Shown here piece after piece: positions 30,191 to 62,549 of a stretch of DNA of 64,000 nt (positions within the stretch are counted from its first letter, which is position 1; every line of letters starts with the position of its first letter). The position numbers and the translations under genes are program-made. The stretch is from Tubulanus polymorphus. Lineage: Eukaryota; Animalia; Nemertea. The notes under the pieces were generated by a model. That model was not told the origin of the DNA, did not search any database, and worked only from the letters and a program-made list of their open reading frames with translations. The stretch is taken from positions 10,749,950-10,813,949 of the forward strand of contig NC_134026.1 in the NCBI RefSeq assembly GCF_964204645.1, written 5' to 3'.

Positions 30191-30228
30191 GTTTTTTAAT
30201 GATATTTTAATAAAAATATGTATGATAA

Positions 30229-34024: not shown

Positions 34025-34164
34025 TATATGGGACCCGTACAAAACCGTCGCGACCTTTTATCACGACGAAATTATGTCGAAAAAACGTGATATATCGCGA
34101 TTTATCGACATTACTAAGTCGGTATATCGTGTTAATATCAAGTCGTAAAATCGTTATACGGATC

Positions 34165-34579
34165 TACGGAAGCGATAAGGGGCCTCGAGATGTCGCGTTC
34201 CAACTCAACAAGTCACCATATTTATGTCGATATATCGCAATATATCGCGTCAAGTCGACATGAATATGTCGACATATCGTGACGTTTTCACGACAAATTT
34301 CGCTTTTTCGCCCATTTTCCACGGGACAAGCCGTTATTTGAAGACACGTCAAATGTAAGATAAGGACACCAGTGATATGACGACTGAGTTTCAAGTCGTC
34401 ATGAATTTGTCGATTTGTCGCAAAGAAAGTGGTCGAGAAAACGAAATATGTCGTCAGAACGTCACGATATGTCGACATATTCATGTCGACTTGACGCGAT
34501 ATATCGTGGTAAGTCGACATAAATATGGCGACTTGTCGAGTTGGAATGCGACATCTCGAGGCCCTTTATCGCTTCCGTA
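34165..34579. mobile_element. TACGG-ended element copy B
   Basis: Same family as copy A; independent TSD CGGATC. Confidence 0.88.
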
Positions 34580-35047
34580 CGGATCACTCCTTTCACCAAT
34601 GTCGACGCGTGTATCTCAACATAACCGTACCGTCGACATAATTTTCACTACTTTAGCTAAAATGTCGTGATACGTATGGCAATTTATTGAGACAATATCG
34701 CAAAAAGTCGACATAAAAATCACCTCATTTTAAATAAGGTCTACCTAGTTACATCGATATATTGAGATAGTTAACCTAATTTCAATAAGGGGACGCATAC
34801 TCAATGATGTTTAATGTTAGATGAATATGAAAGAAGAAATAAGGTTGGCAGAAAACTTAAAATGACTTTATCATGACCAGAATCTGGTGGACATATGGAA
34901 TGTTGGGGTTCAAGTAGAATGACCCCAAATGCTGGGGCACAATAATAGTATTCGCTGATTTGCGGCATGCGACAAAACCAAAATATTGAATTGTTGCGGG
35001 CGACAAAACGAAAATAATGAATTGTCGCGGGCGACAAAACCAAAATA

Positions 35048-36257
<1,210 letters not shown>

Positions 36258-36549
36258 GTATTGTCGCGGGCGACAAAACCAAAATAATGAAATGTCGCGG
36301 GTGACAAAACCAAAATTATTGTTTTGTCGCGTTATTTTAGTTTTGTCGTTTTGTCGTAATGTCGCCCTCATTTGCATATTCTTGTTTTTTTTAAGCATGG
36401 CCCTTATCAGCCACCATAATAAAACGATCACAAAAAAGTCTCGTAAAACGAAACACTTGCGGTCAATCGAAATCCAAGCTGGATCTGATTTTTTGAGAGT
36501 TGAATTGGCTGAAGATGGCAGCACTAGCTGGGTACTTTGCGCGAAGTAA

Positions 36550-37959: not shown

Positions 37960-40900
37960 ATGGCGAGCGAAGTCGCTTTACAAACTCTGCAAAAACAACT
38001 CTCCCGAGTCTCTAGAATTAATTTGCCGGGTAATGTCTATGACAAACGACCCAGTTATTTTCTTTCTTATACGAGAGCAGTGGGTAAAAATGTTAGATGT
38101 GCCAATCTGAAGCCAGTGAAAAAAATAGAAGTTTTATTCGACCCGTATCATCAGCTATGTCGCTCGGCCAGGTGAGTGTCTTCGACACCGCAAAAAAACC
38201 ACCGCCGGTGTGGTACTCGTGCAAAATCTGTAGATCTCCGATGTCTCCGTTTCTCTTCACCAAGAACCTTTAAGACACGAATGACATTTTCTCGATACCT
38301 TTAAATCACTGACTTATGCACCAGTCAATAATGAAATCCCCGCCTGGGGGTCGGGAAACGAAAATTGGCGCAAATTAAGGATCGCTCAATTGGGTCTTTT
38401 TCCCCGCTACCGGTAACGTTATTTTTATCCCTGTTGTAGCGCTATGGATCGCCTACACACACAGGGATTCCTGCGTTAAGTATGCGGGGAATTGTGCGCC
38501 ACAGATCCCTGTGGATGTGGTATACGGGGAATACTTTTACTGAATAAAATCAAACTACAAAGCTAGGTATGTTCATGTCCGCGCGGGGCGCCACTATCGA
38601 TTGTGACGACCATTATTGATTAGGAAAAGTGTGATGCGCGTTTTTACTACGCGTTTTGACATCGCGTAGTAAAATCATTCATAAAACCTGTCTATCAATG
38701 CAAATAAGCTAAAATCTTTTGGAATCAACCAATAAGATCGATCTTTATCACTTGGGGGTTGGTTTAGTGTATAAATCCGCATTTTAGTCGAAGAAAATAG
38801 AAATCGAAATATACCCTTTTTCAAGAGCAAAATTCGTCAGCTTAGGACCAGGAATAAGCGACTAATCATCAGGGGCCGGTTCCATTGTCGAGACTTAAGT
38901 CCAAAAAGTGGTCTTAAATCTTAAGTCTGGTCTTATTTTCTTAAGACCGAACGTTTTCTGTTCCAGAGAGAAGACTTAAGCTTAAGCCACAGTCTTAAGT
39001 CTGATATTTTTAAGTCTGTCCATTAGTGGACTTGAATATTTAAGACCGGTCTTAACATCTAAGGAAAAATACAAAATGGCGCGTTTACTTTTGGGTATAA
39101 TTTTGCCAGCTCGAAAAGAAAGAGAAATTCGTCGGTTAGGTAACCCATTAGAGGTTTTTACCGCTGATGAGTTGAAAGAACGGTTTCGATTCAGGCCAGA
39201 GGGCATCGATTTTCTTGTGAGAACATTCGGAGACGCGTTGACGCCTATGCAGGATAACGAAAGAGGGAAACCAATCTCAGTAGTTTGGCAGATTTTAATC
39301 GCGCTTCGGTTTTATGCCACAGGGCATTTTCTGCAAGTAATTGGGGATACTTTTGGTATAGCGAAGAGTTCCGTTTCACGCATAATAACTCGAGTAACAA
39401 ATGCAATCTTTGACCAAATACCAAGATTTGTAAGATGGCCAACCGACGAAAATACAAAGCGCGAGATAATGCAAGGATTCTATGACATAGCCCATTTTCC
39501 ATCAGTTATTGGGTGCATCGACTGTACACACATCCGAATACAAAGACCACATCATCACAAAAATGACTACGTAAACCGCAAGCGGTATCATTCATTGAAT
39601 ATTCAAGCTGTTTGTGACAACAAAGGTAAACCCTCACCAAATTATTGGCATATTCATATTTTCGTCAATCCGAAGTTGATCAAAGAAATATTGGTTCATA
39701 GAAAATTGATATTTTCTAGGTCGTTTTACTAATGTAGTAGCGCGCTGGCCAGGAGCCACTCACGATAGCCATATCCTGCGAACTTCACAAATCGTGAGGT
39801 AAGTTTCACATTTTCAAGAATTGTAATGTAGAATTGTGAGGTGATTTGACTAAATATCCTACGTATAATAGGTATTTTGAGGGAAATCCTGCAATCGGAG
39901 GATTGAGAAATGGACTGGTTTTGGGAGATAGCGGCTATCCATTAAAACCGTACTTGATGACCCCATTTCATCAGCCCGGAGACAGGTCCGAAGAAAGTTA
40001 TAATAGGGCTCATAAGATGACTCGTAGCCTCATTGAAAGAACATTCGGAGTGTTGAAGCGTCGTTTCCACTGTCTTCATGGCGAAATTCGTATGGAGCCA
40101 GAAAAAGTTTGTAAGATATTTTCGGCGTGCGCGGTTTTGCATAATATAGCGATCAACTTGAATGAACCTTTAGATTTTGATGAAAACTTTGAAGTCGATT
40201 TGCCAGAACAAGAGGCTGTTCGTGAAGTACTTGGAAATCGCGGGCAAGAAACAAGAAATCACATTGTTCAAGAATATTTTTTGTAAATATTTAACCTCAA
40301 ATATATTTTTTTTGAGAATATTTATAACATGTATCGTATGGTAATATAAATTCAAAGAGTTAAACATAAAATAAATCATAACAATAACAATATGTTAATT
40401 GGCATTTGATTAAATTTAAATTTCTTGTTTTTTCAGTAGATTTAATTCAATTTTAATTTTTTCTATTTCGAGGTCAGTCTTCATCATCTTTCTTTTCACA
40501 TACTCCATCTGAAGCTCGATGAGATCTGCCTGTGTCGCCGTTCTCTTTTTCTTGTTGCCTATAATCAAATAGAATATTAAACTAAGCGTTCTATTCTAGT
40601 TCTTCAAAATTTCATTCATTTAAAAAATATCTACCATCAGCCTTAGATGAACTAGCTTGCTCTGTTTCTGCTGCCTGTAGTAGGCCTACTCCTGAAAAAC
40701 ACGTATATAATATCAAGATACCCAGTCGGGTTGCAGATGGAATACAGTATACCGGTATGTAACGTTTCCAATACTTACCTCCTTCAATCATGACATGCGG
40801 GCCATCTCCCATAGCTGTTTCAATCAGCGTTACATTTTTATTTGCTTGGTCATCTCCTTTAACGGTAAGAATATACTATTTATTCATGAAAGATTGAATA

Positions 40901-43900
40901 ATTTCATACGAGAATACCAATAGAGCTAAAAATAACTCGAAATACAATTTGTTTTATGTAGCGTACTAGTACTACTTGTCTATTTTTCAAACAAAAAATA
41001 CACTGGAATCATTTAAGCACTGTAAAAGAACTATATGTAAGCTTTACCTAGATTATTTGTCGTAATTGTGGGCAGAGGTATTGCATTGGGAGCTTCAATA
41101 TTTCGGATTTGCTCCGCTCCATCGTCTAAAATTAGAAACAATATGAATTTACGGGATTCGAACTATGCGTCAATTTAGCTTAGAATGGGAATATACTTCA
41201 TGGGAAAGAGCTGTCGCCTGACACTACGGTTTACGACGATGAGTTTATTAAATCATGTTTAATACTCGATTGCTATGGATTTAGCCGGGGATACAGTTCA
41301 GTCATGCAATGCTAGATTGGAATATAGTTAGATATATATGTGGATAAGTCTTCCAATAGCTGTCAAGGTAGGAATCTTCCTATAAAGTCAATTAGTTTGG
41401 GATTCGATTCAAATGTTGCCAGTTAGCAGGTGCGCGCCAGTTAGCAGGTGCGTGATCAGATGACGTACTAGGTCAGGGTCACCTTTGTTTACACACAGAC
41501 GAAAATGAGTTAGGGCAGGCTAGACTGATTCTGATAAAACAAACAAACTATGAGCTCTAGACAACTAACAAACACCCCACACCCTCACCATTCTTAAACA
41601 AATGGTGAATCGTGAATGATTTAAATCCAAAAAGATAGAAACAATAAACTTACTTTGTAGAATGAACGTTTCGACGCCGTCGATCCCGCACCACGTTGGA
41701 TTGTCACACCACAATTCGATCACGTTCTGAGTTGCCTGGTCCAACTCAGAGGGTGGAGGTCCTCCACCGGTTTTGGAAATCAAATTGTTTTGTTTAACGA
41801 ATTTCTTTTTCGCCTCCCCTTTGATATTCTTCCACTTTTTCTTGATTTCATCGACCGTTCTTCGCGCTACGCCGATCGCGTTCACTTTCGAGCAGATTTC
41901 TTCCCAAATTTCGCGTTTTCGTTTAGCGGTTATAGTATTGCTAAATGCACCCGATAAAATTGCGTTATTGTCATTAACTAATTTAACTAAAAGATTAGTT
42001 TCATCCGTCGTATAATTGAAAGATCTCTTCCGCGCGATACTGTCATTTAAAATCTCCGCCATTTTGGATTCAGTCTTAAGTCCTTAAAAAAGGGCTTAAG
42101 ACTGTCTTGACTAAGACCAACACTAAGACCACTCTTTGGAACGCAAAATTAAGACCAACTTAGCAAAGTCGGTCTTAGAGGATTTAAGACAAAAAATGAC
42201 TTAAGACTAGACTTATTTTAAGTCTCGACTATGGAACCGGGCCCAGGAATCGGAAGGTTTAGGATCTTAAAATTCAAATACTGAAGACCGCGTGATTTTA
42301 TTTCGTGTCGGGGCTTAGCGATCGCTGCCGGAAAAGTCGATGTCTAAGTTTTGTGTTGAAGCGAGCGATACAGAATGGCGGCCGGCACTTGTTATTGAAT
42401 GACGACGCGCCGCGCTGCTCGTGATGAGATCAATATTCAACAATTATTCATCGGTCTAGCGGTGAATTATTGTATTTATTTTCCGATTCATAATTATCAC
42501 TATATTTCTGAATATTAGGACAGATTTAGCGAAATGATCGGCAAAAAAAACATTTTTTTGAGCGCGGATCGCCACTACGCTCCCGTCGGTAAAGCGGCTG
42601 TTGAAAGAGGGAGGCGTCTAATGGGATGAATTGAGGGTTGTGACGGGCAAAAATAGAGGCGCGTGATGGGACAATGAGGCTCCCGAGGGGATTTTCCAAA
42701 AGCAGCAAAATTGAAATATATATAAAATATTGTGGAAATTTAGCTCAAAACAAAACAAATGGATTATTATTTGGTTATTATTAGTAGTATTATTACTATT
42801 GCTTGGTTTATGTTTCTAAACTGATTGATTTTATTATGATATCATGGATATATTTCAAATTTCAGCGTTTTGAGCTAGGCCAAGCCTGATTTTGTGCTTT
42901 TCTTAACTAAAATTCATTTAGCAAATAATATATAAAATTGGCATATTAAATCAATTTGCAATAGGAGCCTATGGCTATAGACCTAACTGACAGGCCTTGA
43001 TAATCATGTTTATTCATTTCAAAAATTATGTAGTGAAAAAAAGAATTTCAGCTGAAATCATATCAATATTTCTCAATATTTCACATTTTTTCTTGCCGTT
43101 ACCATGGAAACCTAATAATAATAATCTATATAATAATAGATATTCCTAGATAAACTTAGGGCAAACATAAACTATTGATAACTAGTTATTCTATCCCCTT
43201 TCTACATCATAACTTTTGATCTAACATCGATATTTTCATTATTTTACCATTTTTCGGCTGGTTTCCATGGAAACCATAGGCATTTGGAATCAGATAAAAA
43301 TTTTGGGTCTTTCAACTGTCACCTGAAAGTACTATGAGTGTATTGCTCTTTAAATTTCTAGTCTATCTCTTTTAGTTTAAGAGATATTGAAGTTTGTTTA
43401 CATTAAATATTGCCTTCTTAGATCACAGTTTTTGTGTATTGAAACATGAAGACACTTTTCGCTCAAATTTTCAAACTTCAATTTGCAATATCTCGAAAAC
43501 TACTGAAGATAATTCAAAAATTTAAAAAGCATATTGTTATTTGAGCCCTCCTCATTCCAATAAGCTTTCTTTCATTAAGATTGGAGCTATTTGAATTTTT
43601 TATGGATATAGCTAACAAAGCTTTTGCAAGTATTTGGCCTAGTTTTCTCCATTAAGATTTTATATATAACAGTGCTTCATCTAGCATTAAAAAAGGGCAG
43701 GGTGCTGATTTCTAATAAGGGCATTTTTACGCGTGATTCCATTGGAGCAAGGGCACAGAATAACGCACTCACGTCCGTTTTAGGGGCAACCTGCAATGTT
43801 CCCTATTGCGTAGAATCGAGGTACCCCCTACTACAATTGAGGACTAGAAACTATGTTTCACTCTTGCCATGAGTGACACACTTGACCACAGTACATCCTT

Positions 43901-46900: not shown

Positions 46901-49900
46901 TTGTCTACCACACTGATGTTTTGAAGTAACACGCCATATCCTGGGCGTATTATGGTTTCGGTCGGTAACGATCCCTGGATAAAAATCATAACTAGTGTTG
47001 TCCCTGAAAAAGTATAGGACACATTGTGAGTACAACGTAATTAGGAAATGGAACTACATCCGTCGTTTGTCCTTTTGCCTCCGAAATATCTCCAAGGGTG
47101 TTTTATCAATAAAACTATCTTCGAACTCCCATGTGCAATCTTTCATGCCACCTTCCATTTGACTAGGAATTGTTCATTTCCCCCTTATTAAAACGCGATT
47201 TCAAGATCTTTTCTACTGTAGGCCTATAAATATCATCTTCAAAATTATCCCCTGAATCATCGGAATCGGATTGATTCCCTTCATCCGCTTCGGTGTCAGG
47301 TAACGATTCGAATCACTAGGGTTGTGCACCTAGACACATCTTCTTTCCAAAAACTGGCCCTGTCAGATTCAAGATGGCCGACTGGCAGCCATTGTTGTTC
47401 GCCAAAATCAGCACTTTTTACACATTTTCGAAGTTTACAAGGGAAATTTGGAAGACACTTTGATCATTTACCTCGATCTTTCGATTATATTTGAATCTAC
47501 CAATGGCCTATCAGCATAAGAAAAATTGGGTCCATCTGACTCAAGATGGCCGTCCTATGACCTTTTTAGTGCCCAAAAATGTCAAATTTGGCCAGAATTC
47601 TAGGTCCTGGAGCTTCCTACTGGTTTGCCATTTCTCATTGCAATTTGTGATGGGTATTCTTTGTAAAGGGATGTTTTATACCTGAGACAGGTATTTTTGA
47701 TCTGCCAATTATGATGCAATTATGATGCAATTGGCGGCCATCTTGGTGTCATTAGTACTTATTTGTAGGTGGGAAAAAGTTTTTCGACATTATATTGATA
47801 CCTAAGCATATTTTGCTACAACAATGAATTAGAAAGTTGTAGCGTATAACGTGTTCTATGATTGGGGTGAGTTTCAAGTTCATTGTTTTTTGTATATGGC
47901 CACCAGGGGGCGTTGAATAATACAATATCTTAGTATTTCTATATTATATTTGTACCAATACATATTTTGTCACCGCAATCAATTGCAAAGTTGTATCTCA
48001 TGACATCTTCCATGATTATGGTGAGTTTTAAGGACATTAGTTAATGTATATGGTCACCAGGGGGCGTTGAATAGTAGAATAACCTGGTATTTCCTTATTA
48101 TATTGGTACCTAGGCATATTTTGTTACCATCAGCAATTGCAAAGTTGTAGTTCATGACATGTTCTATGAATATGGTGAGTAACAAGGTTATTGGGTTTTG
48201 AATATGGTCACCAGGGGGCGTTGAATAGTAGAATAACTTGTCAACCAGGCATTGTTTGTTATCACAATCAATTACAAAATCGTAGCTGCTGACATGTTTT
48301 ATGATTGTATTGAGTTTCAAGTAGTATACAAAATAGCGGTTCTGGCGCAGCCCGACCCCGGTTCTGGCGCAGCCCATCCTTACCCCGGTATACCGTGTTC
48401 CCTCTCAAAGCTTTATCTCCACCTAAATACCCTAAGAAGACAACCCCTGTGGACCGCGGTTCTGGCGCAGCCCATCCTTACCCCGGTATACCGTGTACCC
48501 TCGCATAGCTTTATCTCCACCTAAATACCCTAAGAAGACAACCCCTGTGGACCCCGGTTCTGGCGCAGCCCATCCTTACCCCGGTATACCGTGTACCCTC
48601 TCAAAGCTTTATCTCCACCTAAATACCCTAAGAAGACAACCCCTGTGGACCCCGGTTCTGGCGCAGCCCATCCTTACCCCAGTATACCGTGTACCCTCTC
48701 AAAGCTTTTTCTCCACCTAAATACCCTAAGAAGACAACCCCTGTGGACCATGGAAAACACGCCAAGGGGCCGGCAAACCCCCTCCGGCCCCTATAAACCA
48801 ACCGCTATAATGCACCTACAACAAAGTGTTATTTACATAGATATTTACAGTATATACAAGTATGTGAAACGCTCTGACCTGGAATTCACCTCTAAGCTGA
48901 CGCTATCAGCGGTGCGCTGCGACCTGATTGTCACTGATTGCGAAATAGCCTAGAAAGTTCTATGCTGACGCAGAAGCCGGCAAACAACCGAGACATCGGC
49001 AGGCAACCAGAGCCATGTCCCTTGGACATGGCCAGGCCCGGCCAACACACCAGGTGAAGCGCGTCTCGTGAAAGTCCTGGTTCACTCACCAAGGTGGATA
49101 TAGATTCTGCGTGGTCAGAAATGGACACAGATCTGATCTATCAAAACCTGGTGAGTGACATTAAAGCCAGGTTGCCGAAAACCCTGAAACAGCGGAAATG
49201 TGAATTACGGAAGACGCTGTTCAAGAATGAAGCCGGCTCGAAAGAATTCTTCGGCCTAGTGAGAAAAATCAGCAAACTCAACAAGGCAAATCGGTTCTTT
49301 ACAACAGCCAAGCAGATTATTACGGGTTCCCCGAGCAATCAAACGCTGGAGGATGCATTTCCGACTAAACGACGGGTGAAGGAATACTTCATGGACCTGT
49401 ATTCTAGTAAGCAGACCGGTCCTATTCCTAAGCCACCCGTCAAGAACGTTGCGTTCCCGTTCGATATGTCACCCATAACCGCAGCTGAAATCGAAAAAGC
49501 CTTGAAGAGCAGCAACCCAAAGTCCGCTCCAGGTCTAGACAGGATCAAATACGGACATCTCCGTCAGCACACCCATCGACTCGCGCGATTTTACAACGAC
49601 ATACTAGATACGGGAAGGCCACCTTCGAAAATCTCGGTGTGGTGCACCAGTGTTGTGACGCTTCTATTCAAGAAAGGGGACCGCCGGGATCCTGCTAACT
49701 ATCGTCTGATTGCGGTTACAAGCGTGATCTCGTGGCTCCTTCATCGGATAATGGCGAAACGCATAGAACGCCACGTCATTAGGAACGGATTCATCGACAC
49801 TGCCGTACAAAAAGGATTCGTGTCGGGTCTTCACGGGACACTGGAACATTCTGAATTATTAGAGACTAAAATCATCGAAGCCGAAAAAACTGAAAATGAC

Positions 49901-52900
49901 TCATTTGTGACTTTATTTGACCTTAAAAATGCATTCGGTTCAATCGAACACGAACTGGTAAGTGAAACGCTATCTGTCATTGGAATTCCCGCAAGTTGGT
50001 ATAGGTACCTAACGGCTCTGTATTCTCAAATTTCTAGCAAATTCAAAGGTCCTTGGGGCATGGTCGATATCCCCTACAAACGAGGGGTCTTTCAGGGTTG
50101 CCCTCTTAGCCCCCTAATTTTCATCCTGTGCGTAGAACCCCTCGTTAGAATACTGTCAACCGGGACATCCCTAGCCTATGCAGATGACACAACGCTGGAA
50201 ACAAAATCGGCAAAAGCCCACTTAGATATAACGTACGCGTTTAACAAAAAAGCCAAGGAAATGAACCTTGAACTCAGGCCGGACAAATGCGTTTCCCTGA
50301 GTGTTAGACGCGGATGAATTGAGCCATTCAAAAACGAGATAGAGGGCAAAGACACCGCGACCCTCACCGATTTGGACAGAACGTATCTAGGCAAAATTTT
50401 CAGTCCCAAGGGACAGGAAGGGGTGGGTGAAATTCTCCTCACAAAATTCAGGCAACGACTCGCAAACATAGATAACGCCGATATATAAAGCGGGACAAAG
50501 GTTCATATCGCTATAGACTATATGCTGAGAGCTGATTACCATGACCTCATGATCAACGACCTGTCTGATAATTGCTTGCAGTTAATCGACAGTGTCTTTG
50601 TAAACACGCTACATAAATGGGGTCACCGTCGATTGCTCACTTTTCGAGTACCGTCCACCGTATACCACTGGCTTCATGCATTGAAGGTCTACTTCCTTAT
50701 CACTTCTCCCGACGAAACAATCGTTGAAGTAGCCATCTCGAAATTCGAAAACAGCCATTATCTCGATCTCGCTTTCGAATCCCTCAACCATAAAAACTCG
50801 AAGGCGTTCATAAAACGCCACTACTTAGGAATATTCGCACACGCCACCCCCGACCCAGAAAAATTCCCCTGTAGCTCTAAGGCGTTTGACGTATTCGACA
50901 TCTATCCGGAGCATATACCCGAAGTGTATACAGACGGCTCGTGCATGAGAAACGGTGCAGACGAGGCTCGTGCGGGCTACGGCGTCTACTGGGGACCAGA
51001 CAGTCCCTTAAACACCTGTGGCGTCGTCTATCCACCTACCAACAACAGAGGTGAATTAACCGCGGTCGTCATGGCTCTCAATCAGGCCATCCAGCTTGGT
51101 ATTAACTCCTTGAAAATTTTCACCGACTCGAAATACGTTATAAACGGTATCACTGATTGGATCAAGACGTGGAAAGCCAGGTGCTGGAAAAACGTCAAAA
51201 ACCGCGATCTCTGGACACAACTGGATGGTCTGAATAACCGAGTCTCCGTATCTTTCAAATACGTCGGGGTTCACCAGGGGGTACACGGGAATGAGATGGC
51301 GGACCAACTAGCTAAATCGGGAGCAGCTCTCAATGGTAGTAATCCGGGGGTGACGTGTCTCTGTAAAACTCTAACGTTAACCTCCATCCAGCTTTTTTAT
51401 GATGGAAGCCCTGGCCTGCTCCCTGCCCTGCCTGATGAGGTCCTTTTTTGTAGCCTCGTCGATCGTGATCGACCCGTGTTTTTTACGAGCCTGTGACTTG
51501 ATATCCTGTTTCAAAGTCTGATAGTTCCTCTGTTCGGCTAGAATCAGCTTGAACTCGTCATCCGAAACAACTCCATCACTTATTGCCCTCGATACAAGAT
51601 CTGACACGGTGCTTAGTTTGGAAAAGGCTAACACTCGAATTTCGTCGTGCTTTTTAGCCTTGATCAGAAGCTTCCGACCGACTATCTTCCCAGACACGCC
51701 TAAGACACCTAGGACGGTCGCTACGGGGATGGTGATTATGTTTGTAAGCAAGCCAGCGGCTCCCGTAGCCGCGACTGCTATGCTAGCCGTCACGAAAGCC
51801 GCATCAAATCCATCTATGGTGTTTACCGCCCTTTTATACTTCTTGTAGAGCGCAGCGCGGGATTGTCCCTCGGACTCTAAAATTTTCTGGACTTCGCATA
51901 TTTTCTGCAGTTGGAAGTTCGACGCATCTTCGGTTGGAGCACTAGGCTCAGTTGGAACCATTGGGTAAAGTTAAGTGTCGCTATCCATGCTATATACTAT
52001 GCGGGAAAATGTCGAGCTCGATGTGGAGTGAAGCTATCGTAGCTATTGCTCGAGTAGCGGGCGATCTCGACGACTTGAAATTGATGACGTCGCCCTCGGC
52101 CAATTCGAGTGGTGGAGAGAACGTTTTGACCGCGGCTTGGAAGACTCCTTTACCTTGGGGTTTGATCGGGCCCTGTAAAAGCCGAGCCTCTTTCGTGATT
52201 TCTCCTTTTTCCACCCTGTTGACGGTCAGCACTACTGTGGTATTAGTTGTTAAGTCGCCACCGGAGAGGCTCATTTTTAGCACTCTCCCCCGACACATCA
52301 TCGTGTAGCCCGCGTACTGGGCTCGCGACCCATCACCGTACGAAAGTTCGTAACAGCCCTCACCAAGGGGTCCTTTTTCCTCGGCCCAAACGGTTGTCAC
52401 AGGTTTTGTGGTTGACTGTGTTTTCTCTAATCCCCTGTACAAGTTCATCTCTATTCTAATGCGAGCAAAATTTGGAGTGGTTCCTGGAATCGAATCTCCT
52501 CCATGTCCCGATTGAAAACCTTGACCACTACGTCGACGAAGCCGCCTTCCTTAATTGGTATCGGTACCCCGTAAACGTACTCGAATTAGTCGCCGTATTG
52601 ACCTGCTTTCAGATGTAAAATGGCGATCAGGTCCGAGGGCACCCCGTTTAGGAAGTTTCTCGATTCGTCAACGAGATTGCATGTTACGCGGTATTCCGTA
52701 TGCCTGGTAAACCTACATTCTTTCGTACCCCTTATGCTAACCTCTTTACCTTCGACGTTTGGGTAATATCCTTCCGGGACTCCCAACAGATCGGTGATGG
52801 AGCCGCTGAAGAGCACTCGGTACGGTTTTTTGACGTTGAGTTCGATGCGCCCCCTCGCCTCCACGTAGGCTATGTTAATGAAGCCCAGTTTGTGACCGTT

Positions 52901-55900
52901 TCGGGTTATGACTCGCTGAATTTCGTCGTTCAAACTCTCAACCGTGTAAAGTCCATTCCTGATAATCAAGTTGAACACTTTTTGTTGGTGCTCGTCCACC
53001 TTTTCTCTGGTCATGTAGCGAAACCTGTGGTTGTTCATTTTGTCGGAAACGTTGAAGTAAGCCAGAGGAATGACAGCCCGTCTTAAGGCCACAGTTTTGA
53101 AGCCACCCGTGTCGAGATGCGTTTTTAGACGCACGGTCGGATCCTTACCGTAACAGTGGATGACTAACATCCTTCCTATATCTAACGCGAGAATTTCTTG
53201 CTCAGGACTTGGAAAGACAGACCGACTGCAGCGATAAACAACAACACCAAGTGCTCGGCCACGAATCCGACTGCTTCTCCGGCTTTCCTCAACAGGAAGC
53301 TAACCACCGTTCCGATCATTCCCGGCAACGCGGCAGCTCCTTTCCCTGCGAGATATTTAAGAAACGCCGCGAACTTTTTCAGAGCTTCTCGAATCCTGGA
53401 CTTGGGTTCTTTTCCCGGTCCAACCGGCGGACTGGGTGTTACTACGCTTTTGAGCCCGTTCGTGATTGCGAGCCCGATGCTCGTGATAGTCATAACGACG
53501 GCCGTGACAACGCTCACCAACATAATCCCTTCCTGTTTGAACAACTCCCGGATCTTTACGCCGAGGGGCCGATTATCTTCGTTCTTCAGAAGCCTCTTCA
53601 ACCTCTCGATCTGAGAAGTCTCCCCCTGCCGTAGAGCCTCGTAGGTCCGCCTGTATATTGCTTCCTGAGCTTCGAACCTTTCTACTTCGTCGTCCCAGTA
53701 TCGGATGTCTTGTTCGGACACCGCGTCATCGCGCTCTTTCTGAACCTTTTTTAGTTCTCGTTGGGCCCATTCCACGTTTACAGCTGCTGACTTAATTTTG
53801 CTGGACGTAGAAACCAAAGTGGTAGCTACCCCCCGGAGTTCACGTCTGTCTTCTGGTCTCAGCGGAGCCCTGTCGTCATTGACGATGTCCTCTATTTCCT
53901 GCTGCAAACTCAATTCGTTATCCACCGGCAATCGATCCACGATAGATGGTTCCAACGGGTCTCGTTCCATTCTCACTGGTCTGTCCGGGCCCAGAGCATG
54001 GAAAAACTCAGAGCCCCCTTTCGCTTTCGAGATGGTACTATGCGCGAGTACTTGTACCGGTAAGTTTCACCCGAACTGGATCACCGTTCAGTTCCGTCTG
54101 AAAGAACCAGGTATCGTCTTGTTTTCGTAGTTGCAGGCGCATCAGGGCTCGCTCCATGTCGTCCAGGTTACCGCCGAATTTACCGAGCAGCGAGTCGATG
54201 ATGCCGTCTTTTTCTCCCAGGTTTTCCATGGGAATGAGCTCGCCTACTGCGTCATCTTGAGGCTCCACGTCCCAGTCTATCGGATCAACGTCGAATTCCG
54301 CCATCGTCTATAATTAACCCAGGAATTTCTGCAAGAATCGGAAACATCGAACTCGTCCATTTGTTTTTGGATCCACTCCTCGTACGCTTCCCACAAATTC
54401 CAGTTTTGTGCCAAAGCAAATTTCGACACTGGTTCTTTCCCGAACTTACGTTCCGGCTTTCCATGTAGCTCGAGGATTCGGTTTAAGAAGAATCCGTAGG
54501 AAAGGAAGTTTTTCCGACGAGGGAACTTTTCGAGGAAGAGTTGATAGACGTCGGCGAAGCAATATCTGATCGTCGCGCATGTAGGAATGTCGAGAAACCC
54601 ACCGTCCAAACCGAGGTTTGATAGTCGTAATTCGCCGGAGGGATGTGGACTTGTTTCGGTTTCGGAACCTTTTTGATCTGCAACCGAAGAGGAGGGTTTA
54701 CGTAGTCTTCGAGTTCTCTCTCGAGCCTTTCGAGATCAAACTCCTTAGGCAATATACCGTAGGGGTCGTCCATAACTTACAGATACTTGTACGCGATGAC
54801 ACCGGTCAGAATTACACCGCCTAATATAATGGCGTACTCACTGTTCAATTGGGCGTCTGAAGGGGTATAGAAATCGCCTAGCACCGGCCGCTGGCTCAAA
54901 GATAATTTGTCGTTCCTGGTACTGTTGTAAAGCCTAAGGGCCTCATCGACGTCCGAAAAGTCGGATTTTGTCTGCATCTCTTTTTGCAGCTCCCTGTTGA
55001 GGTAGTCCAGTGTCTTTTGCCGTTTCTCGTTCCAGGTCACCATTGCCGCGTTCAATCGCTCCATAGCCTTTTCGTGCCTCTCTCGTTCTTGGGCAGCTCC
55101 GGAGTCGCCTTGTACCGCTCTATAGATTGCTTGGCCTCCAGTAAATGCCACAGCGTTCGCTATGGCACCGCCGATGATAACCGCTGCAGTTGCCATGATT
55201 AGGTCCCTATATTTGGGGGCAGAATTTTCGACTTCTCCAGGTTATCCTTGGAGATGGTTGCTAAAGAAACCGCAACGGTGAGTTTCATAGCTTCGGAAAG
55301 GTCAGCCTTGGAGGGATCACCCACATCGAAGCGTAGCATTTTCTTCCCGAGCAGCGCGTACCCTATGGTCAGTCCGCTTAGAACGGCCGAGTGATAAAGT
55401 ACATTTGCGATTGTTCGATAGTCTGGATTCGTTGCCATCGTGCTATATCTATCACCAGAAAATTTAGGTCATCTCCACAAGGCGACAATTTAAAGGTTCG
55501 GGTGTTGGTTCCGTGTTTTCTTCGGGTTTCGGGGTTTGGTTTAGCGCCATTCTCTGATAGTATAGAGCTCCGAGGCCCACTAACAACCCGCCTATCGCGA
55601 TCCACATTTGCAGGTGTTTTGACTAGGCTCTGTTTTCGTCGTCGGAACCGACAATCGGGGCAGCCGTTTTCTTCGAGGCTCGCTGCTGCCTACTAATTTC
55701 GGCAAGCTTTTTGCCCCATGCGACTCGACCAGGGGACTTTTGTTTATGCGGGTTAGTCGTCACTTGTTCCACTTGTTCAAGTTCCATCCCTATATGCAAG
55801 AGCGGAAAATACGACTTACGGGAAAGTGGACAAGTTACTTATCGGCAAGTGGACTAGTTACTTGCGGACAAGTCACTTTCCTCAGAATCTGCCATATTCT

Positions 55901-58900
55901 TCCCGGTGATTACCGCCACGTTCGCGATTGCGAGTATGGGAGTCTTCAGAATCCTACCCAGATGGCCGAGCTGGTTTTTCATCTCGGCGGTGATAACAAA
56001 GTTTTCAGTCAACTCCTTGTTTAGCTGTTCTGCGTCTACGTTAGGTCTGAACCACTTGCAGAGCTTGGAATAACCGTAGAGTATGCTGTTGATCAGACTG
56101 TCGGAAACCGCGGCAGAGTAACGGTTTTCGTACTCCGTCCACACCCAAAGCGCTTGGCATCATCGACAGGCTGTCTAGGACGATAAAGGAGATCATTTTC
56201 AAGGATTTCACCGAAAGAGAAACCGTCGTGTGGTACGATCGTTTGCAAGATTACGTAGATGGCTACAACGCTACACCTCACGGGGTTATTTCAGATATGA
56301 CTCCCGAAGAGGCCGGAGAATCCCGAAATGAAGAAAGGTTACTGTTCGAAAATATCGGCAAATCCGAACCCCCTGAGAGCCCGTTCAAGCCAGGCAACAG
56401 CGTAAGGAAAAAGCTGAAAAGACCCGCGTTCAAAAAGGGTTACAAACAGATATGGGGCCAAACAGTGCACTCCCTCGCGTCTGTGGAAGGCTTAAAAGGG
56501 GTCCTCGATAATGGAGAATCAGCTAGGTTGGACGATCTGCAACTAGTGATACCTCCAGCTGAAAAGAAGACGACGTTAGACGCTGTGTCCGTAGCCGACA
56601 AAGAGCACAAGATAGGGCTGACTATCAAGCACAAGGAGGGTTTGTCACCCGAAGCGGTAATGCCCTCAAATAGCAGATACAGCCTGCGATCTAAAGCTCG
56701 TTGAGCAATTCCTCGACGTACTCGTCCAACGGAGTCCTGGCATTTTTGTGGCCGTAAGCGAGCGTAGCGATACGCGGCTGTCAGCGTAAAGCTCCCCTTA
56801 GCGGCTGACGCAACCAGTCTGTCAAGTGGGGCCAGCAACAACTGCACAGAATCGATGAACTGCAAATTACCGAGACTGAATGAGATGTACTTCTCCATGT
56901 TATTCGGGATGCACGTTATCTTTCCTTCAGTCCGACCGATTGCCTGCATGATGAGATGAGAGTCGTAACCGCGGAGGTTGTGAAACACGACCGGTATAGG
57001 CGTGTATTTCGCGGACAGTCGCAACTTGAGGTTGCACTCGTCGTGGGCCGGGCCCCGGTAGTCACCCGTTATGTGATCGTGATCCCTGACCCGATCCTCA
57101 TAGAGTGGTTTGTCGCATACGTAGCAATTTTCCGCTTCCCCGAATGATGTTTGCTCCTCCCGAGTAGTTACCATAGGCGCGGGATGGGCGAGCACACCCT
57201 TGATTTTCTCCTCTTCCCCTTGGAGGTGCTGAAGGAATACCGCCGCAGCGTCTTGGCCTCTATAAAGGACGGGTGGTTCGTGTTTACCGTCGCTTCTCAC
57301 TACCACGTACGAGAACCCGCACGCCTCGTGAAGTTGAGTCTTTTCGCTACCTTTCTGGTTCGGGTTCCTTCCGGGGCCCTCGAATTTGGTTGTAATGGCT
57401 TCGAAGTCGGCGTAGATGACGAACGGAATCTTGAGCTGCTTGTAATGATTGGTGAACCGCAGCACTTTGTCCTCCTCCGAGGGCATACTGGTACGCATCG
57501 GACGTCCGTTGACTCCTCGACAATCTGACCTGTGCCTCTCCAGGAGATCTTCTCTGGTGAAACAATGAAGGCACCGCTCGCAGAAGTGTTTCCTCCCTTC
57601 AAACTTACTCTGGGTGAACAACAGGCGATTGAGGTCTTTGATCCATGTGTAATGCTGTTTCTCACCGCTCTCTACGAGTAGCAAGTTAATTCTAGGAATG
57701 GGGGCCTGGCCATCGCTGATATGCAGTGGGTACACGCCTTTGTCATACCCGAACACGTTGATTGCCAGTCCGTTTTGTCGTTCGACCATAGGAATCTGAC
57801 TCAATGGTGTTGGTGAATCGATGCCTGTAAAGTCAAGCTGGTCCCAGTGATTCGCATACTTCGATGGCCTCTGGGGGTCTCTCTCTACGGGGTATTTCGA
57901 GGCCAGTATTGACCACTTAAGGCAGTAATCATCTCTATTTTTGACATTTACGACGGCGTGTAAGAACCGCCTCTCAACGGTTGATATCTGGCGATATTCA
58001 GGAATAGTTCGACTACCCTCTCTACAGCCCATCCGGAACCTTCTCTCATATAATTCTCAATACTCTGTAAAACCCTAGCTTCAGCTTTACCCAACTCCTC
58101 ATTTATGTTAGCCGCCTTCGATACAACGTATTGCTTCGACCAGAAGGGCGGCTCGACGTGCGCATAGGTGCCGTCGTTCTTCTCCTTCCTCAACGAAACC
58201 CGCAGAGCAATGGAGAATTTTACACCCTTAAGGTCAATGATCTCCTCGACTAACTTCTCCCTTACATTGTTCCGCTGTCCGCGCAAGAATATCGACGGAT
58301 CAGTCACATCGGTGGCTGGTCTCAAAACCCAGGCCCTCAGATAATTTTGGATAGCAAACGGGGCCCTATGAAACGCGGGTTCTGGCTCCGGTAGATTCTC
58401 ATCCCAAATCGGATCATCGTCCGGTATAATGTTTTCTACCTTGTACTTGGGTTTTCTGGGGGCGGGTTTTGGCTTTCTCGGAGCAGGCGTCGGTCTGCGG
58501 GTCAACTGGTTGATGGCATCGGCATATGTTGCGACAGTAATCTGCCCGTCTTGAAGTAAATCGGTCAGACTTTTTACCGCGCTGTCCATTTTGCTTTCGT
58601 ATATATGAGAAATGTATGTCTCCAAATGGAAATTTTTGGGGGGCCCCCTGTGAGAAGTCGGCACACGCCGTGTGTTGGCCGGGCCTGGCCATGTCCAAGG
58701 GACATGACTCTGGTTGCCTGCCGATGTCTCGGTTGTTTGCCGGCTTCTGCTTTAGCATAGAACTTTCTAGGCTATTTCGCAATCAGTGACAATCAGGTCG
58801 CAGCGCACCGCTGATAGCGTCAGCTTAGAGGTGAATTCCAGGTCAGAGCATTTCACATACTTGTATATACTGTAAATATCTATGTAAATAACACTCTGTT

Positions 58901-61900
58901 GTAGGTGCATTATAGCGGTTGGTTTATAGGGGCCGGAGGGGGTTTGCCGGCCCCTTGGCGTGTTTTCCATGGTCCACAGGGGTTGTATTCTTAGGGTATT
59001 TAGGTGGAGATAAAGCTTTGAGAGGGTACATGGTATACCGGGGTAAGGATGGGCTGCGCCAGAACCGCGGTCCACAGGGGTTGTCTTCTTAGGGTATTTA
59101 GGTGGAGATAAAGCTATGCGAGGGTACACGGTATACCGGGGTAAGGATGGGCTGCGCCAGAACCGGGGTCCACAGGGGTTGTCTTCTTAGGGTATTTAGG
59201 TGGAGATAAAGCTTTGAGAGGGTACGCGGTATACCGGGGTAAGGATGGGCTGCGCCAGAACCGGGGTCGGGCTGCGCCAGAACCGCTATTTTGTATACTA
59301 CTGTTTCAAGGTCATTGGTTTTTGTATATGGTCACCAGAGGGCGTTGAATATTGAAATTGTTAGATTGTTGAGCATTTGAAACCACTTCCCAAGTGGGCA
59401 TGGTGTCCCTGGACCCCTAGTTTTGGGGGGAGAGTACATTGCTTGCACGTGTTTCACTACGCGGCTACGGCCACAATGGTTGCGCTATCATAGGCCTAAA
59501 TCATTTCCAAACCGCATTGTTTTGATAGCTTTGACAAAGCCATGTTTATATACTAAAACAGCTTTCCAGGGTAATATTGCATGTGAGTCATTGATTGGTC
59601 TCTTGGCGAAAAGAAGCTGCTTCATTCATGATGTAATTGATGCATCCTCGCCTCATTGCACATACGTGCAATGGCTCATTTGAATAAAGAAATCAACAAA
59701 TACAAACAAAATGGCGGTCTTTCTCGCCGATTTAAAGCTCAATTTTCGAGAATATTCATCAATCCTTCAAAACAGTGTAAAATGGATATAAAAACTATGA
59801 TTTATCTTGACTGCACAACTCTGCTGATTCGATTAAGACCTATTTGAGGTATGCACACCCAAAATTAAGCGAAATATCCCAAAAAGATAGTGGACAATCA
59901 AAAATAAATAGTATTAAGTCCTACATTTTTCTTCAGATCAATTCCAAATTTAGTATGAATGTTCTATGGACCAAGGCCTATAAAGTTATAGTTTTTTTTT
60001 TGATTCGTCCCCCCTGGGGGTGGAATTTCTCTTTCTTCAAATCGCTACTAGTCCTTCAGTTTTAATCAGATCAAATTGAAATTTAGTATGAATGTTCTAT
60101 GGGCCAAGGCCTTTAAACTGAAAGTTATAGAGCCATTTTTAGCCCACTTAGGAGTTAAGTCCCAGCGGGCTATCGCGTTCACTTTTCGTCCGTCGTCCAT
60201 AGACGGAATCCAGTTATTTTGGAAAGTTTTGAAGACGCTTCAATGTAATGTCTTGATATTTGGTTTATACATGTATCTACCCTAGACACATCTTCAGCAC
60301 AAAAACTGGCCTTCTCAGACTCAAGATGGCTGACTGGCAGCCATTGTTTTTCGCCAAATTCAGCACTTTTTACACATTTTTGAAGTTTTTGAGGGAAATT
60401 TTTGAAGGCGCTTTTATCAATTACCTTGATCTTCCAGATATATTTGTTTCCCCCAAGCGCCCATCAGCATGAGAAAAATTGGGTCGATTAGACTCAAGAT
60501 GGCCGTCCTGTGACCTATTTGGTGCCCAAAAATGTAAATTTTTGCCTGAATTCTGAGTCCTGTAACATCCTAATGGTTTGCCATTTTTCATTGCAATTTG
60601 TGATGGGTATTCTTTGAAAATAGATATTTTATACCTGAGACAGGTATTTTTGATCAGCCAATTATGACGCAATTGGCGGCCATCTTGGTGTCATCATTAC
60701 TCATACGTAGGTGGAAAAAAGTATTTCCACATTATAATGATACCTAAGCATATTTTTTTACCACAATCGATTTGAAAGTTGTACCTCATAACGTGTTATA
60801 TGATTGTGGTGAGTTTCAAGGTCATTAGTTTTTGTATATGGCCACCAGGGGGCATTGAACAATGCAATAACTTAGTATTTCTATATTATATTTGTACCTA
60901 TGCATATTTTGTTACCACAATCGAATGAAAAGTTGTAGCTTATGACATGTTAAATGATTGTGTTGAGTTTCAAGGTCACTAGTTATTTCATACAGTCACC
61001 AGGTGGCGTTGAAAAGTAGAATAGCTTAGTATTTCCTTATTATATTGATACCTAAACATATTTTGTAACCATGATCAATTGCAAAGTTGTAGCTCATAAC
61101 ATTTTCTATGAAATCTGTGAGTTTCGAAGTCACTGGGCTTTGCATATGGTCACCAGGGGGCATGGAATATTAGAATAACTTAGTATTTCCTTATTATATT
61201 GGTAACTAGGCATACTTTGTTACCGTAATCAAAAAATCGTAATAAAAAAATAACAAACAGTAGACTCTTATTTACCAAGTACCAGCAATCTAATTGGTCT
61301 CTTTTCTTTATTAGGGAATTGGCGTATATTTTCACATTCAAGAAAATACGCAATACGAATTTAGGATGTGCTATGAAAACAACTGTGAAGTCGGACATGT
61401 CACCACCAGAAATTAAAATCCAATTCGGTACGTGTAGAAATTCGTATACATGATTTTTTGAAATTTTCATAAACGATTATTTTATCACTGGGATCAATTT
61501 AGACTTGCATGATTTTAAGCCCACTTTGGACTTTAGTCCCAGCAGGCTATTGCGTTCACTTTTCTTCCGTTCGTCCGTCCGTTAGACGGAATCCAGTTAT
61601 TTTAGGAAGTTTTGAAGACGCTTCGATGTAATGCCTTGATATTTGGGTTACACATGTATCTACCCTAGACACATCTTCAGCCCAAAAACTGGCCCAGTCA
61701 GAATCAAGATGGCCAACTGGCAGCCATTGAGTTCGCCAAAATCCCACTTTTAACACATTTTTGAAGTTTATGAGGGAAATTTTGAAGACGCTTTGATCAA
61801 TTACCTTGATGGTTCGTATATATTTGAACCCCATTGGTCATTGGTTTTTGTATATGGCCACCAGGGGGCGTTGAATAATACAATAACTTAGTATTTCTAT

Positions 61901-62549
61901 ATATTTGTACCTATGCATATTTTGTAACCACAATCAATTGCAAAGTTGTAGCTCATGACATCATCTATGATTATGGTGAGTTTTAAGGACATTAGTTATT
62001 CTATATGGTCACCTTGGCATATTTTGTTACCATGATCAATTGCAAAGTTGTAATTCATGACATGTTCTATGATTGTGGAGAGTTTCAAGGTCATTGGGTT
62101 TTTGCATATGGTCACCGGGGGCGTTGAATAGTAAAGCAACTTAGTATTTCCATATTAGATTGGTAACGTGGCATAGTTTGTTATCACAATCAATTACAAA
62201 ATCGTAGCTGCTGAAATGTTCTATGATTGTGGTGGGTTACTAGGTCATTGGTTTTTGTATATAGGTCCAGGGGCGTTGAATATTGAAATTGTTAGATTGT
62301 TGAGTATTTGAAACCACCTCCCAAGTGGGCATGGTGTCCCTGGACCCCTAGTTGTTTTCATAAATTTCATTATTTTTGTATCAAATTGACTTTTTAGCGG
62401 ATGATAAAAAAGTGATCTTCAAAACAGAAAACCTGAATTCGCTCGAAATATTGCAGAAATTCAACGCAATATGTCGGGAAAAAGAACCCGGATTAATACC
62501 TCCTAAGAAAGTCAAGGCTAAATCTCCATTCTGGGGAAAGAATGTCTGA
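37960..62549 (+). CDS. MRPL53: Mitochondrial ribosomal protein L53; exons 37960-38171, 61315-61427, 62398-62549 (158 aa)
   Basis: Exon 1 ...GKNVRCANLKPVKKIEVLFDPYHQLCRSAR, exon 2 ELAYIFTFKKIRNTNLGCAMKTTVKSDMSPPEIKIQF, exon 3 DDKKVIFKTENLNSLEILQKFNAIC...V*. GT-AG junctions are phase-compatible (2, then 1) and the protein matches recalled mRpL53 motifs. Confidence 0.9.
39076..40286 (+). CDS. Harbinger DDE transposase (HARBI1-like); exons 39076-39625, 39720-39798, 39872-40286 (347 aa)
   Basis: GCIDCTH, RWPGATHDS, LGDSGY and IERTFGVLKRRF motifs; both introns are GT-AG and preserve the frame. Confidence 0.93.
40416..42062 (-). CDS. Harbinger Myb/SANT-like (trihelix) DNA-binding protein, multi-exon
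   Basis: RKRSFNYTTDE...W...VNA...RTVDEIKKKWKN...KTGGGP. Donor at 41653; last exon is a coiled coil ending ...LLKKQEI*. Internal exons are approximate. Confidence 0.85.
44831..45025 (+). mobile_element. tRNA-derived SINE
   Basis: A box TGGCTGATTGG, B box GGTTCAAACC, A tail, and 13-bp TSD AGAGATGTTGGAT. Confidence 0.85.
45520..46685. mobile_element. Non-autonomous MULE-like TIR element
   Basis: Inverted CCGGATCCGGTCAC(T/C)GACTT.TGAACGCTATTTTGCCGGAT; 9-bp TSD TAAAATAAA. Confidence 0.7.
46700..47315 (-). pseudogene. Gypsy-like LTR retrotransposon relic: chromodomain at the pol end followed by an env-like N-terminus
   Basis: Frameshifted VEKILKSRF.KG..QFLVKWK...DCTWE.E, then a signal-like stretch and IIRPGYGVLL...WKYTFIVP. 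Confidence 0.6.
48320..49050 (+). repeat. Polinton left TIR (731 bp) with four ~98-bp tandem units
   Basis: Reverse complement of 58670-59302; unit CCGGTTCTGGCGCAGCCCATCC...CCCCTGTGGAC. Confidence 0.95.
49094..51496 (+). pseudogene. Reverse transcriptase (non-LTR, RLE-clade-like) fused to RNase H1; one frame with two premature stops (50315-50317, 50486-50488)
   Basis: SAPGLD, KKGD..DPANYR, QKGF, DLKNAFGSI.H, GVFQGCPLSP, YADD and YLG (after the first stop), then RNase H VYTDGSC/NNRGEL/TDSKY/GNEMADQLA. The ORFs at 49094 and 50522 are in the same frame. Confidence 0.92.
51377..51961 (-). CDS. Polinton accessory membrane protein (hydrophobic hairpin + coiled coil)
   Basis: 194-aa ORF with a central hydrophobic stretch and KKHDEI...KLSTVSDLVSRAISDG..SDDEF, resembling recurrent Maverick ORFs. 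Confidence 0.7.
   Translation of the reverse strand: MVPTEPSAPTEDASNFQLQKICEVQKILESEGQSRAALYKKYKRAVNTIDGFDAAFVTASIAVAATGAAGLLTNIITIPVATVLGVLGVSGKIVGRKLLIKAKKHDEIRVLAFSKLSTVSDLVSRAISDGVVSDDEFKLILAEQRNYQTLKQDIKSQARKKHGSITIDEATKKDLIRQGREQARASIIKKLDGG
51990..52448 (-). CDS. Polinton hypothetical beta-rich protein (possible fibre/decoration domain)
   Basis: 152-aa ORF (VWAEE.G...GYTM...GRVL...LELAEGDVINF...IELD) tightly packed after the minor capsid gene; function inferred only. Confidence 0.6.
   Translation of the reverse strand: MNLYRGLEKTQSTTKPVTTVWAEEKGPLGEGCYELSYGDGSRAQYAGYTMMCRGRVLKMSLSGGDLTTNTTVVLTVNRVEKGEITKEARLLQGPIKPQGKGVFQAAVKTFSPPLELAEGDVINFKSSRSPATRAIATIASLHIELDIFPHSI
52451..53170 (-). 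pseudogene. Polinton minor capsid (penton)-like protein, premature stop at 52586
   Basis: YFNV...N..F, GLYTVESLN, LLG and CNLV...NG.PS motifs. The frame continues past TAA as FEYVYGVPIP...LLALE*. Confidence 0.7.
53182..54304 (-). CDS. Polinton coiled-coil/transmembrane protein (264-aa ORF plus probable frameshifted N-terminus 54038-54304)
   Basis: Coiled coil followed by hydrophobic segments LFKQEGIMLVSV and AAALPGMIGTVVSFL. Confidence 0.65.
54277..54773 (-). pseudogene. VLTF3-like (poxvirus late transcription factor 3) gene, frameshifted
   Basis: RKNFLSYGFFLNRILELHG...W motif; split over ORFs 54483-54773 and 54277-54609. Confidence 0.65.
54777..55196 (-). CDS. Conserved small Polinton protein with hydrophobic N- and C-termini
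   Basis: MATAAVIIGGAIANAVAFTGG...ERERHEKAME...DFYTPS, a pattern typical of invertebrate Mavericks. Confidence 0.7.
   Translation of the reverse strand: MATAAVIIGGAIANAVAFTGGQAIYRAVQGDSGAAQERERHEKAMERLNAAMVTWNEKRQKTLDYLNRELQKEMQTKSDFSDVDEALRLYNSTRNDKLSLSQRPVLGDFYTPSDAQLNSEYAIILGGVILTGVIAYKYL
55199..55438 (-). CDS. Small Polinton protein (79 aa)
   Basis: Tightly packed ORF in the co-oriented cluster, ending ...KILPPNI. Confidence 0.6.
   Translation of the reverse strand: MATNPDYRTIANVLYHSAVLSGLTIGYALLGKKMLRFDVGDPSKADLSEAMKLTVAVSLATISKDNLEKSKILPPNIGT
55445..56144 (-). pseudogene. Decayed small Polinton ORFs (5'-truncated 55854-56144; KSPGRVAWGKKLA-containing ORF)
   Basis: Coding-like frames in the same orientation; the 56144 end abuts the integrase fragment at a deletion junction. 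Confidence 0.5.
56146..56704 (+). pseudogene. Retroviral-like (rve) integrase, C-terminal half
   Basis: KALGIIDRLSRTIK...W.D.L...V.GYNATPH....MTP...FKPG..VR......FKKGY...W; the N-terminal catalytic part is missing. Confidence 0.85.
56780..58588 (-). pseudogene. Protein-primed DNA polymerase B, N-terminal/exonuclease half with endonuclease VII-like Zn insert; frameshift near 57960, polymerase domain deleted
   Basis: EGSGW...YQPLRGGSY, HYTWIKDLNRL, YADFEA, CYVC...VRDHDHITGDYRGPAH..CNL, FHNLRGYDSH and FIDS motifs. Confidence 0.92.
58670..59302 (-). repeat. Polinton right TIR (633 bp) with three ~98-bp tandem units
   Basis: Near-identical inverted copy of the left TIR, exactly one unit shorter. 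Confidence 0.95.
60136..61230 (+). mobile_element. HINE-like family copy, 3'-truncated
   Basis: TTTTTAGCCCACTT start, GTCC repeats, ~120-bp array. Confidence 0.78.
61513..62352 (+). mobile_element. HINE-like family copy filling most of MRPL53 intron 2
   Basis: Both diagnostic ends are present. Confidence 0.8.

Follow-up and report, generated by a model that had tools for sequence, protein, structure and literature searches.

A reverse transcriptase–RNase H gene, probably a long-standing accessory, in a decayed Polinton of the nemertean Tubulanus polymorphus

Introduction

Adenoviruses, virophages and giant viruses all have Polintons (Mavericks) at their root. These elements are described as replicating purely as DNA, and their hallmarks are long terminal inverted repeats (TIRs) beginning with AG and a 6-bp target-site duplication (TSD). 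Here, we describe a Polinton copy from the nemertean Tubulanus polymorphus that carries a gene for a reverse transcriptase (RT) fused to an RNase H. The copy occupies positions 48320-59302 of a stretch of 64,000 nucleotides (NCBI RefSeq assembly GCF_964204645.1, contig NC_134026.1, positions 10,749,950 to 10,813,949 of the forward strand), which is referred to as the window throughout. The gene lies at 49121-51340 on the plus strand, next to the left TIR. With a probability of about 0.6, we read the locus as a deleted Polinton with a long-standing accessory RT-RNase H, which lacks an endonuclease and would copy RNA into DNA on ends supplied by the element.

The RT-RNase H sets this element apart from described Polintons, as the gene sets given in the excerpts of PMC6431247 and PMC8502044 considered here do not include one. 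Neither "reverse transcriptase" nor "RNase H" occurs in the excerpt of PMC8502044, and a term search in that of PMC11296320 gave no matches. In the literature searched, of which parts were covered, no RT was found as a standing Polinton gene, while the genome maps of PMC8502044 and PMC11071296 or Repbase entries could contain one.

Retrotransposons nested in Polintons and Polinton-like viruses, as well as stand-alone RTs in large DNA viruses, are described in the excerpts of PMC12220804, PMC11071296, PMC10294476 and 10.1101/2025.02.07.637071. The nested elements, namely a Daphne LINE (long interspersed nuclear element), Gypsy cargo and Ngaro in Polintons, Polinton-like viruses and mavirus elements, resemble the window in that an RT is located inside TIRs, and in the excerpt of 10.1101/2025.02.07.637071 (section 13) some of the carriers also lack polB. 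As far as the excerpts go, these insertions are recent and recognizable as transposable elements by their own repeats, a deviating GC content or 95% identity with an active family (PMC12220804; 10.1101/2025.02.07.637071). The window RT-RNase H, in contrast, is a single compact gene that is conserved together with its neighbor across saturated silent sites. The RTs of MSV061, mimivirus and lymphocystis virus and the MegaRT (PMC11071296, in the part considered) are likewise LINE-like RTs in double-stranded DNA viruses with no obvious retroelement context. However, these are 16-21% identical to the window protein, come from a different virus group and show no fused RNase H1-type domain; none was placed in our trees.

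The closest resemblance in RT sequence and fold is to the non-LTR (long terminal repeat) retrotransposons with a restriction-like endonuclease (RLE), specifically the R2 group. Unlike these, the window gene has no N-terminal zinc finger or Myb domain, CCHC knuckle, RLE, untranslated region (UTR) or tail, and the RNase H stands where the endonuclease would be. The oomycete Utopia elements also combine RT and RNase H, but there an archaeal-type RNase H lies upstream of the RT and the RLE is kept (PMC4640811, in the part considered), whereas the window domain is downstream and of the cellular type. Retrons and defense RTs are comparable as non-mobile accessory RTs. Nevertheless, the window gene differs from retrons by its eukaryotic non-LTR ancestry, and no cognate non-coding RNA was found in an Rfam scan.

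Results and Discussion

The RT-RNase H gene

The reading frame extends from 49055 to 51496 on the plus strand and is interrupted by two premature stops (50315-50317 and 50486-50488). Pfam assigns RVT_1 (E 1e-27) and RNase_H (E 2e-33) to it and no further domain. The YADD motif of the RT core is located at 50177 and the D-E-D-H-D residues of the RNase H at about 50933, 51053, 51125, 51272 and 51302, in agreement with the original prediction, which had been made from the sequence by a model and had named the RT core, the acidic residues and both stops. From N- to C-terminus, the protein consists of N-terminal helices, the RT core, a thumb/linker and the RNase H (about 50920-51330), and neither a zinc knuckle nor an endonuclease was found in it. 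A PGxD motif is kept before the RT core; in R2-type RTs, this motif is involved in priming on DNA ends and in template jumping. By sequence, the closest solved structures are R2 proteins for the RT and RNase H1 for the C-terminal domain. From its motifs, we presume the RT to be Hero-like.

The frame of about 800 codons expected from the original prediction is present, but the natural length of the gene is approximately 735-740 codons, as the last ~50 codons exceed the ends of two related proteins (P0002 and P0003) and overlap a convergent gene. A 5' truncation at the TIR boundary had also been suspected, and this did not hold. The gene begins with Met 49121, which lies 70 nt inside the left TIR edge, and it is not 5'-truncated since the intact P0003 begins at the same Met (MADTDL compared to MDTDL in the window, with the alignment starting at P0003 residue 3). 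P0003 ends a few residues past the RNase H.

On the RT strand no poly(A) signal was found, nor did the window gene have a flanking direct repeat of at least 6 nt, as had been expected from the missing tail and TSD. Similarity of the gene to its neighbors in GC content and decay had been claimed as well and was borne out. The GC content at third codon positions (GC3) is 0.51-0.58 in the RT-RNase H and 0.50-0.61 in eight other Polinton frames, whereas two Harbinger-type genes in another part of the window have 0.35-0.45. The CpG content also matches that of the Polinton genes. Lesions are evenly spread, with two stops in the RT-RNase H, one in the penton candidate, and frameshifts in the polymerase, the VLTF3-like gene and the gene at 53182. 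From the TIR divergence 0.6-0.8 stops would be expected in the RT-RNase H, a figure computed with 8 TIR substitutions where a global alignment shows 11. Decay after insertion could account for both stops, and their number is unremarkable. Only one RT copy is present within the 64-kb window. The Rfam scan gave no match at threshold beside the RT, and the folding of the leader is only marginally better than that of shuffled sequences (z -2.0; 5 of 100 shuffles were as good).

Intact relatives without an endonuclease

A word-index protein search resulted in 216 matches among 7992 scored proteins, and among the best 120, which were listed, two RT+RNase H proteins were found together with RT-only proteins of 620 aa. 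The first fusion protein (P0003/P0122) is intact, comprises 733 aa and is 40% identical over 90% to the window protein, while the second (P0002) is 50% identical. Among the best 150 matches of P0003 in an exhaustive search of 1.84 billion representatives, no additional protein covered both domains in a single stretch. The RT-only members (P0004-P0006, P0161/P0303, P0222, P0158, P0230 and P0313, the last added by a profile search) come from Logan/ENA records and have lengths of 520-690 aa, and seven of them end with a shared EYP/DYP motif exactly at the RNase H junction of the fusions. CCHC knuckle and RLE motif were found in none of the ten clade members tested, whereas both RLE controls have both. 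Identities within the clade are 32-65%.

Ten rows of the clade were recovered together with a support of 0.98 in a tree of 136 rows. A quick IQ-TREE of 38 rows, calculated with no outgroup, separated 12 endonuclease-less rows from 26 RLE elements (SH-aLRT 99 for the branch). In a third tree of 126 rows (out of 225), rooted on one element with an apurinic/apyrimidinic endonuclease (APE), ten core rows were supported with 0.96, while the position of the clade among the RLE elements was weakly supported (0.56-0.88). Its nearest neighbors are RT-zf-RLE proteins of 900-1050 aa. Long branches are a caveat for these trees. The AlphaFold model of P0003 has R2 RT structures as best fold match and the defense RT DRT2 as a distant one; its RNase H part is of low confidence (pLDDT mostly <65). 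In the RNase H tree, the domain groups with cellular-type enzymes, including a named nematode RNase H1, and one gain of the RNase H in the clade is likely. The clade, with at least ten proteins, seems undescribed so far, and its RT-only members possibly represent a wider family of domesticated RTs.

In P0313, two C2H2-like zinc fingers are inserted just before the RT core (residues 134-195). As a sign of viral origin these fingers were discarded; they gave E 0.04 to one of 88 Polinton-contig open reading frames (ORFs; contig L097) and no match among 120 polymerases.

The prokaryote-genome scan for the RT confirmed 11 of 36 matches (best 29-36% identity), and those long enough for a tree are RLE elements. 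Two records filed as bacterial metagenome-assembled genomes (MAGs), L082 and L083, contain RLE-type non-LTR ORFs, three of them in tandem in L083, which are likely eukaryotic contamination.

A conserved gene pair

In a metagenome scan for the RT, 80 of at least 318 confirmed loci were retained from at least 600 pattern rows, so that additional members of the family may have been missed. The contig that encodes P0002 is an independent metagenome contig of 2.1 kb (L003). Here, the RT-RNase H stop at 1682 is followed by a 65-bp gap and then, tail-to-tail, by a homologue of the convergent window gene at 51377-51970 (minus strand), with 34.5% identity over 113 aa (E 8e-12). The sole poly(A) signal in that part of the contig belongs to the neighbor gene. 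L003 is the only one of 81 loci compared with a match to any other gene of the window element.

At the DNA level, the two loci share one 28-nt match only, and their 3' junctions have no DNA similarity. Fourfold sites are identical at chance level (13/40 in the RT, 11/31 in the linker, 6/42 in the RNase H and 4/17 in the neighbor), while 67-77% of second codon positions in the RT-RNase H are identical. The RT-RNase H is under purifying selection and, as the synteny is conserved at saturated silent sites, the pair has persisted under selection past the memory of these sites. Taken with the intact endonuclease-less relatives, this sustains the central proposal of the original prediction, an integral, domesticated RT-RNase H. 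Judged from these sequence comparisons, the RT-RNase H is rather probably an integral gene of a Polinton lineage.

The same data bear on the most ordinary explanation, a one-off nested non-LTR retrotransposon trimmed by deletions that also hit the Polinton copy. Such insertions are documented (PMC12220804; section 13 of 10.1101/2025.02.07.637071, both in the parts considered), and the copy has at least two internal deletions. However, both gene ends match intact relatives, none of the ten clade members tested has the endonuclease motif, and reported nested elements deviate in GC or share 95% identity with an active host family, which is not the case for the window RT. The same neighbor in L003 at saturated silent sites largely refutes this explanation, and we regard it as very improbable.

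The neighbor itself is a Polinton gene, because its homologues lie within the virion module of two Polinton-like IMG/VR contigs (L098 and L099/L100), one of which encodes rve, an A32 ATPase and a double-jelly-roll capsid protein. Further scans for this gene gave none of 601 matches, and 2 of 313, both on contigs already in the set.

The gene pair might also be cargo acquired as a block from a different DNA virus, such as a large helper virus. L003 would then be part of such a virus, and the gene would not be a trait of a Polinton family. Such an origin is at odds with the virion-module position of the neighbor on contigs that also encode rve, an A32 ATPase, a double-jelly-roll capsid protein and pPolB-like (protein-primed DNA polymerase B) genes, although L003 is too short to classify and annotations of stand-alone LINE-like RTs exist for entomopox-, mimi-, irido- and bracoviruses. 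The MegaRT is a further precedent (PMC11071296, in the part considered). Moreover, the viral-contig scans for the RT confirmed only 2 of 55 pattern matches in one case and none of 48 in the other, the two being giant-virus MAG matches with 25% identity compared to 32-65% within the clade. With regards to all of this, a viral cargo block appears improbable. The two giant-virus MAG contigs (L001:3551-5599 and L002) have RTs too short for a tree.

A third explanation, and the main rival, is a selfish, endonuclease-less retroelement specialized on Polintons, which would be transcribed from the TIR promoter and home by reverse transcription into the TIR-proximal slot. It would use the element's own ends or nicks, and selection on the protein would come from its own spread and not from a benefit for the Polinton. 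The same slot is occupied in two elements whose neighbor genes show no greater similarity than is seen with RT-less Polintons, the presence of the RT is patchy, and the RT descends from the RLE group, which is often site-specific (PMC4640811, in the part considered). Endonuclease-less Penelope-like elements at chromosome ends provide a precedent (PMC8557442, in the part considered). Nevertheless, no 3' UTR, tail or duplicated target was found at the gene in either the window or L003, the lack of DNA similarity between the 3' junctions means that there is no conserved target or template signal, and the base composition equals that of the Polinton. We therefore consider a retroelement of this kind unlikely, even though several of its points also count against an accessory Polinton gene.

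These and some further points weigh against the integral gene. The RT-RNase H is known in two genomic contexts only, the window and L003. The latter shows no TIR or pPolB over its 2.1 kb, has a frameshift of its own and is Polinton-like solely through the neighbor gene. Among the Atlas look-alikes of this gene is one cluster with mostly Nucleocytoviricota labels, which would also suit the viral cargo. The window neighbor is 34% identical to that of L003 but 33% and 41% identical to those of RT-less contigs, which fits a cassette moving between lineages. The RT was found in none of seven Polinton-like contigs with related pPolB (three present only in part), which makes it dispensable for Polintons in general. 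Finally, the RNase H tree supports a single gain of the domain weakly (0.62).

The Polinton copy and its surroundings

Like Polintons, the window element has TIRs starting with AG, a 6-bp TSD, a pPolB and an rve integrase, and a candidate penton gene is also present. The left TIR (48320-49050, plus strand, 731 bp) starts with AGTAGT and includes four 98-bp tandem units (48354-48749), while the right TIR (58670-59302, minus strand, 633 bp) has three. A global alignment of the two shows 11 substitutions and a length difference of one 98-bp unit. A 30-nt TIR pattern had no match in viral contigs. The element is flanked by GTTTCA on the plus strand at 48314-48319 and 59303-59308, the left one within a 154-bp host tandem-repeat unit. 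Since this hexamer is present only once per unit at the insertion site, it is a true 6-bp TSD. We take the element to belong to the Beta class (adintoviruses).

After the convergent neighbor with its homologues in L003, L098 and L099/L100, the minus strand carries an ORF at 51990-52500 with a homologue in L098 (E 2e-16) and a likely minor capsid (penton) gene at 52460-53170 with an in-frame stop at 52586. The latter matches a 250-aa ORF of L093 weakly (E 5e-7), and Adeno_Penton_B labels 18% of one Atlas cluster. It is followed by a gene with one frameshift near 54070 (53182-54310), a frameshifted VLTF3-like gene (54300-54775; Pox_VLTF3 in Pfam, E 2.5e-4, below the cut-off) and a small gene (54777-55200), with further short ORFs upstream, up to 56159. 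A gene for a VLTF3-like late transcription factor, recognized by this weak match, may point to links between the Polinton and large DNA viruses.

The plus strand encodes the C-terminal half of an rve-type integrase (56093-56704; E 4e-14 to the rve integrase of L098), whose 5' half was lost by a deletion near 56120 that fused two 5'-truncated genes. The pPolB gene (56691-58589, minus strand) starts with an ATG 80 nt inside the right TIR, has a frameshift at ~57960 and contains an Endonuclease_7-like insert. It is 60-73% identical to PF03175 proteins of 1100-1300 aa (3549 matches among 6987 candidates), and among named organisms Lineus longissimus (65%) and Elysia crispata have the nearest pPolB proteins, in keeping with a marine invertebrate host. 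The copy still covers residues 1-607 of a 1131-aa relative and retains the final ~25 residues at 56696-56770, whereas the polymerase domain was removed by an internal deletion at about 56770. Major capsid, packaging ATPase and cysteine protease were found neither among the ORFs scanned nor in the six-frame translations listed. In contrast to autonomous Polintons, which have these genes and a polymerase domain, this copy is decayed, internally deleted and, as the three genes were not found, non-autonomous.

The Polinton insertion site is one 154-bp unit of a dispersed host repeat family with internal tandem units, and members of this family are found at 47329-48319, 59303-62243, 12004-12313 and 20067-20221, and on the opposite strand at 9206-10761. 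A Harbinger-type DNA transposon with convergent genes for a DDE_Tnp_4 nuclease and a Myb/SANT protein is located at 39840-42083. Arrays of a 31-bp unit occur in both orientations (31690-33500 and 34930-36330), adjoining inverted repeats at 33604-34580 and an (AAT)n run. Approximately 3 kb at 28000-31000 differ from their surroundings with a GC content of 23-27% and a strong A skew.

Proposed history and function

Under the preferred reading, an RLE-type non-LTR retrotransposon would have lost its DNA-targeting and cutting parts and become an RT-only protein of 620-660 aa. One branch would then have acquired a cellular-type RNase H at this C-terminal end, and it would now reside in Polintons. 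The RT-RNase H is an addition to pPolB and not a replacement. A replacement was rejected for the parent element, which had the whole polymerase because the C-terminal peptide survives.

A TATA-like hexamer at 48792 in the left TIR is a putative promoter element. Both TIRs would act as the same promoter, and as the two starts are 70 and 80 nt inside the TIRs, the RT-RNase H (left) and pPolB (right) may be co-expressed as replication-phase genes. Having lost target recognition and cutting, the RT would need a ready 3' end and, without nicking, may extend free 3'-OH ends on an RNA template. These could come from the ends of the linear genome or from gaps during strand-displacement replication or integration, while the RNase H would clear the RNA template. 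The outcome would be RNA-templated repair and gene capture alongside pPolB, a role that we propose tentatively.

A more far-reaching idea is that a Polinton lineage has independently put together the retroviral enzyme set of RT, RNase H and rve integrase within a jelly-roll DNA virus. Its genome, in part or in full, would go through an RNA step as a second mode of replication beside pPolB. We hold this to be quite improbable, as genes are present on both strands, the parent kept pPolB, and neither an LTR nor a primer-binding site nor an internal region complementary to the TIRs was found in the element; a search for a DIRS-like internal complementary region resulted in one 12-mer only, within pPolB. 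It is just as doubtful that, as this RNA step would imply, the whole endonuclease-less RT clade is a family of viral genes.

If the accessory RT-RNase H is as we read it, a retrotransposon enzyme would have been domesticated by a DNA virus-like element, across the divide between class I and class II. The endonuclease-less clade offers natural, intact and compact R2-type RTs for biochemistry. For Polintons, the gene would provide a testable route to the uptake of intron-less cargo genes or to end repair.

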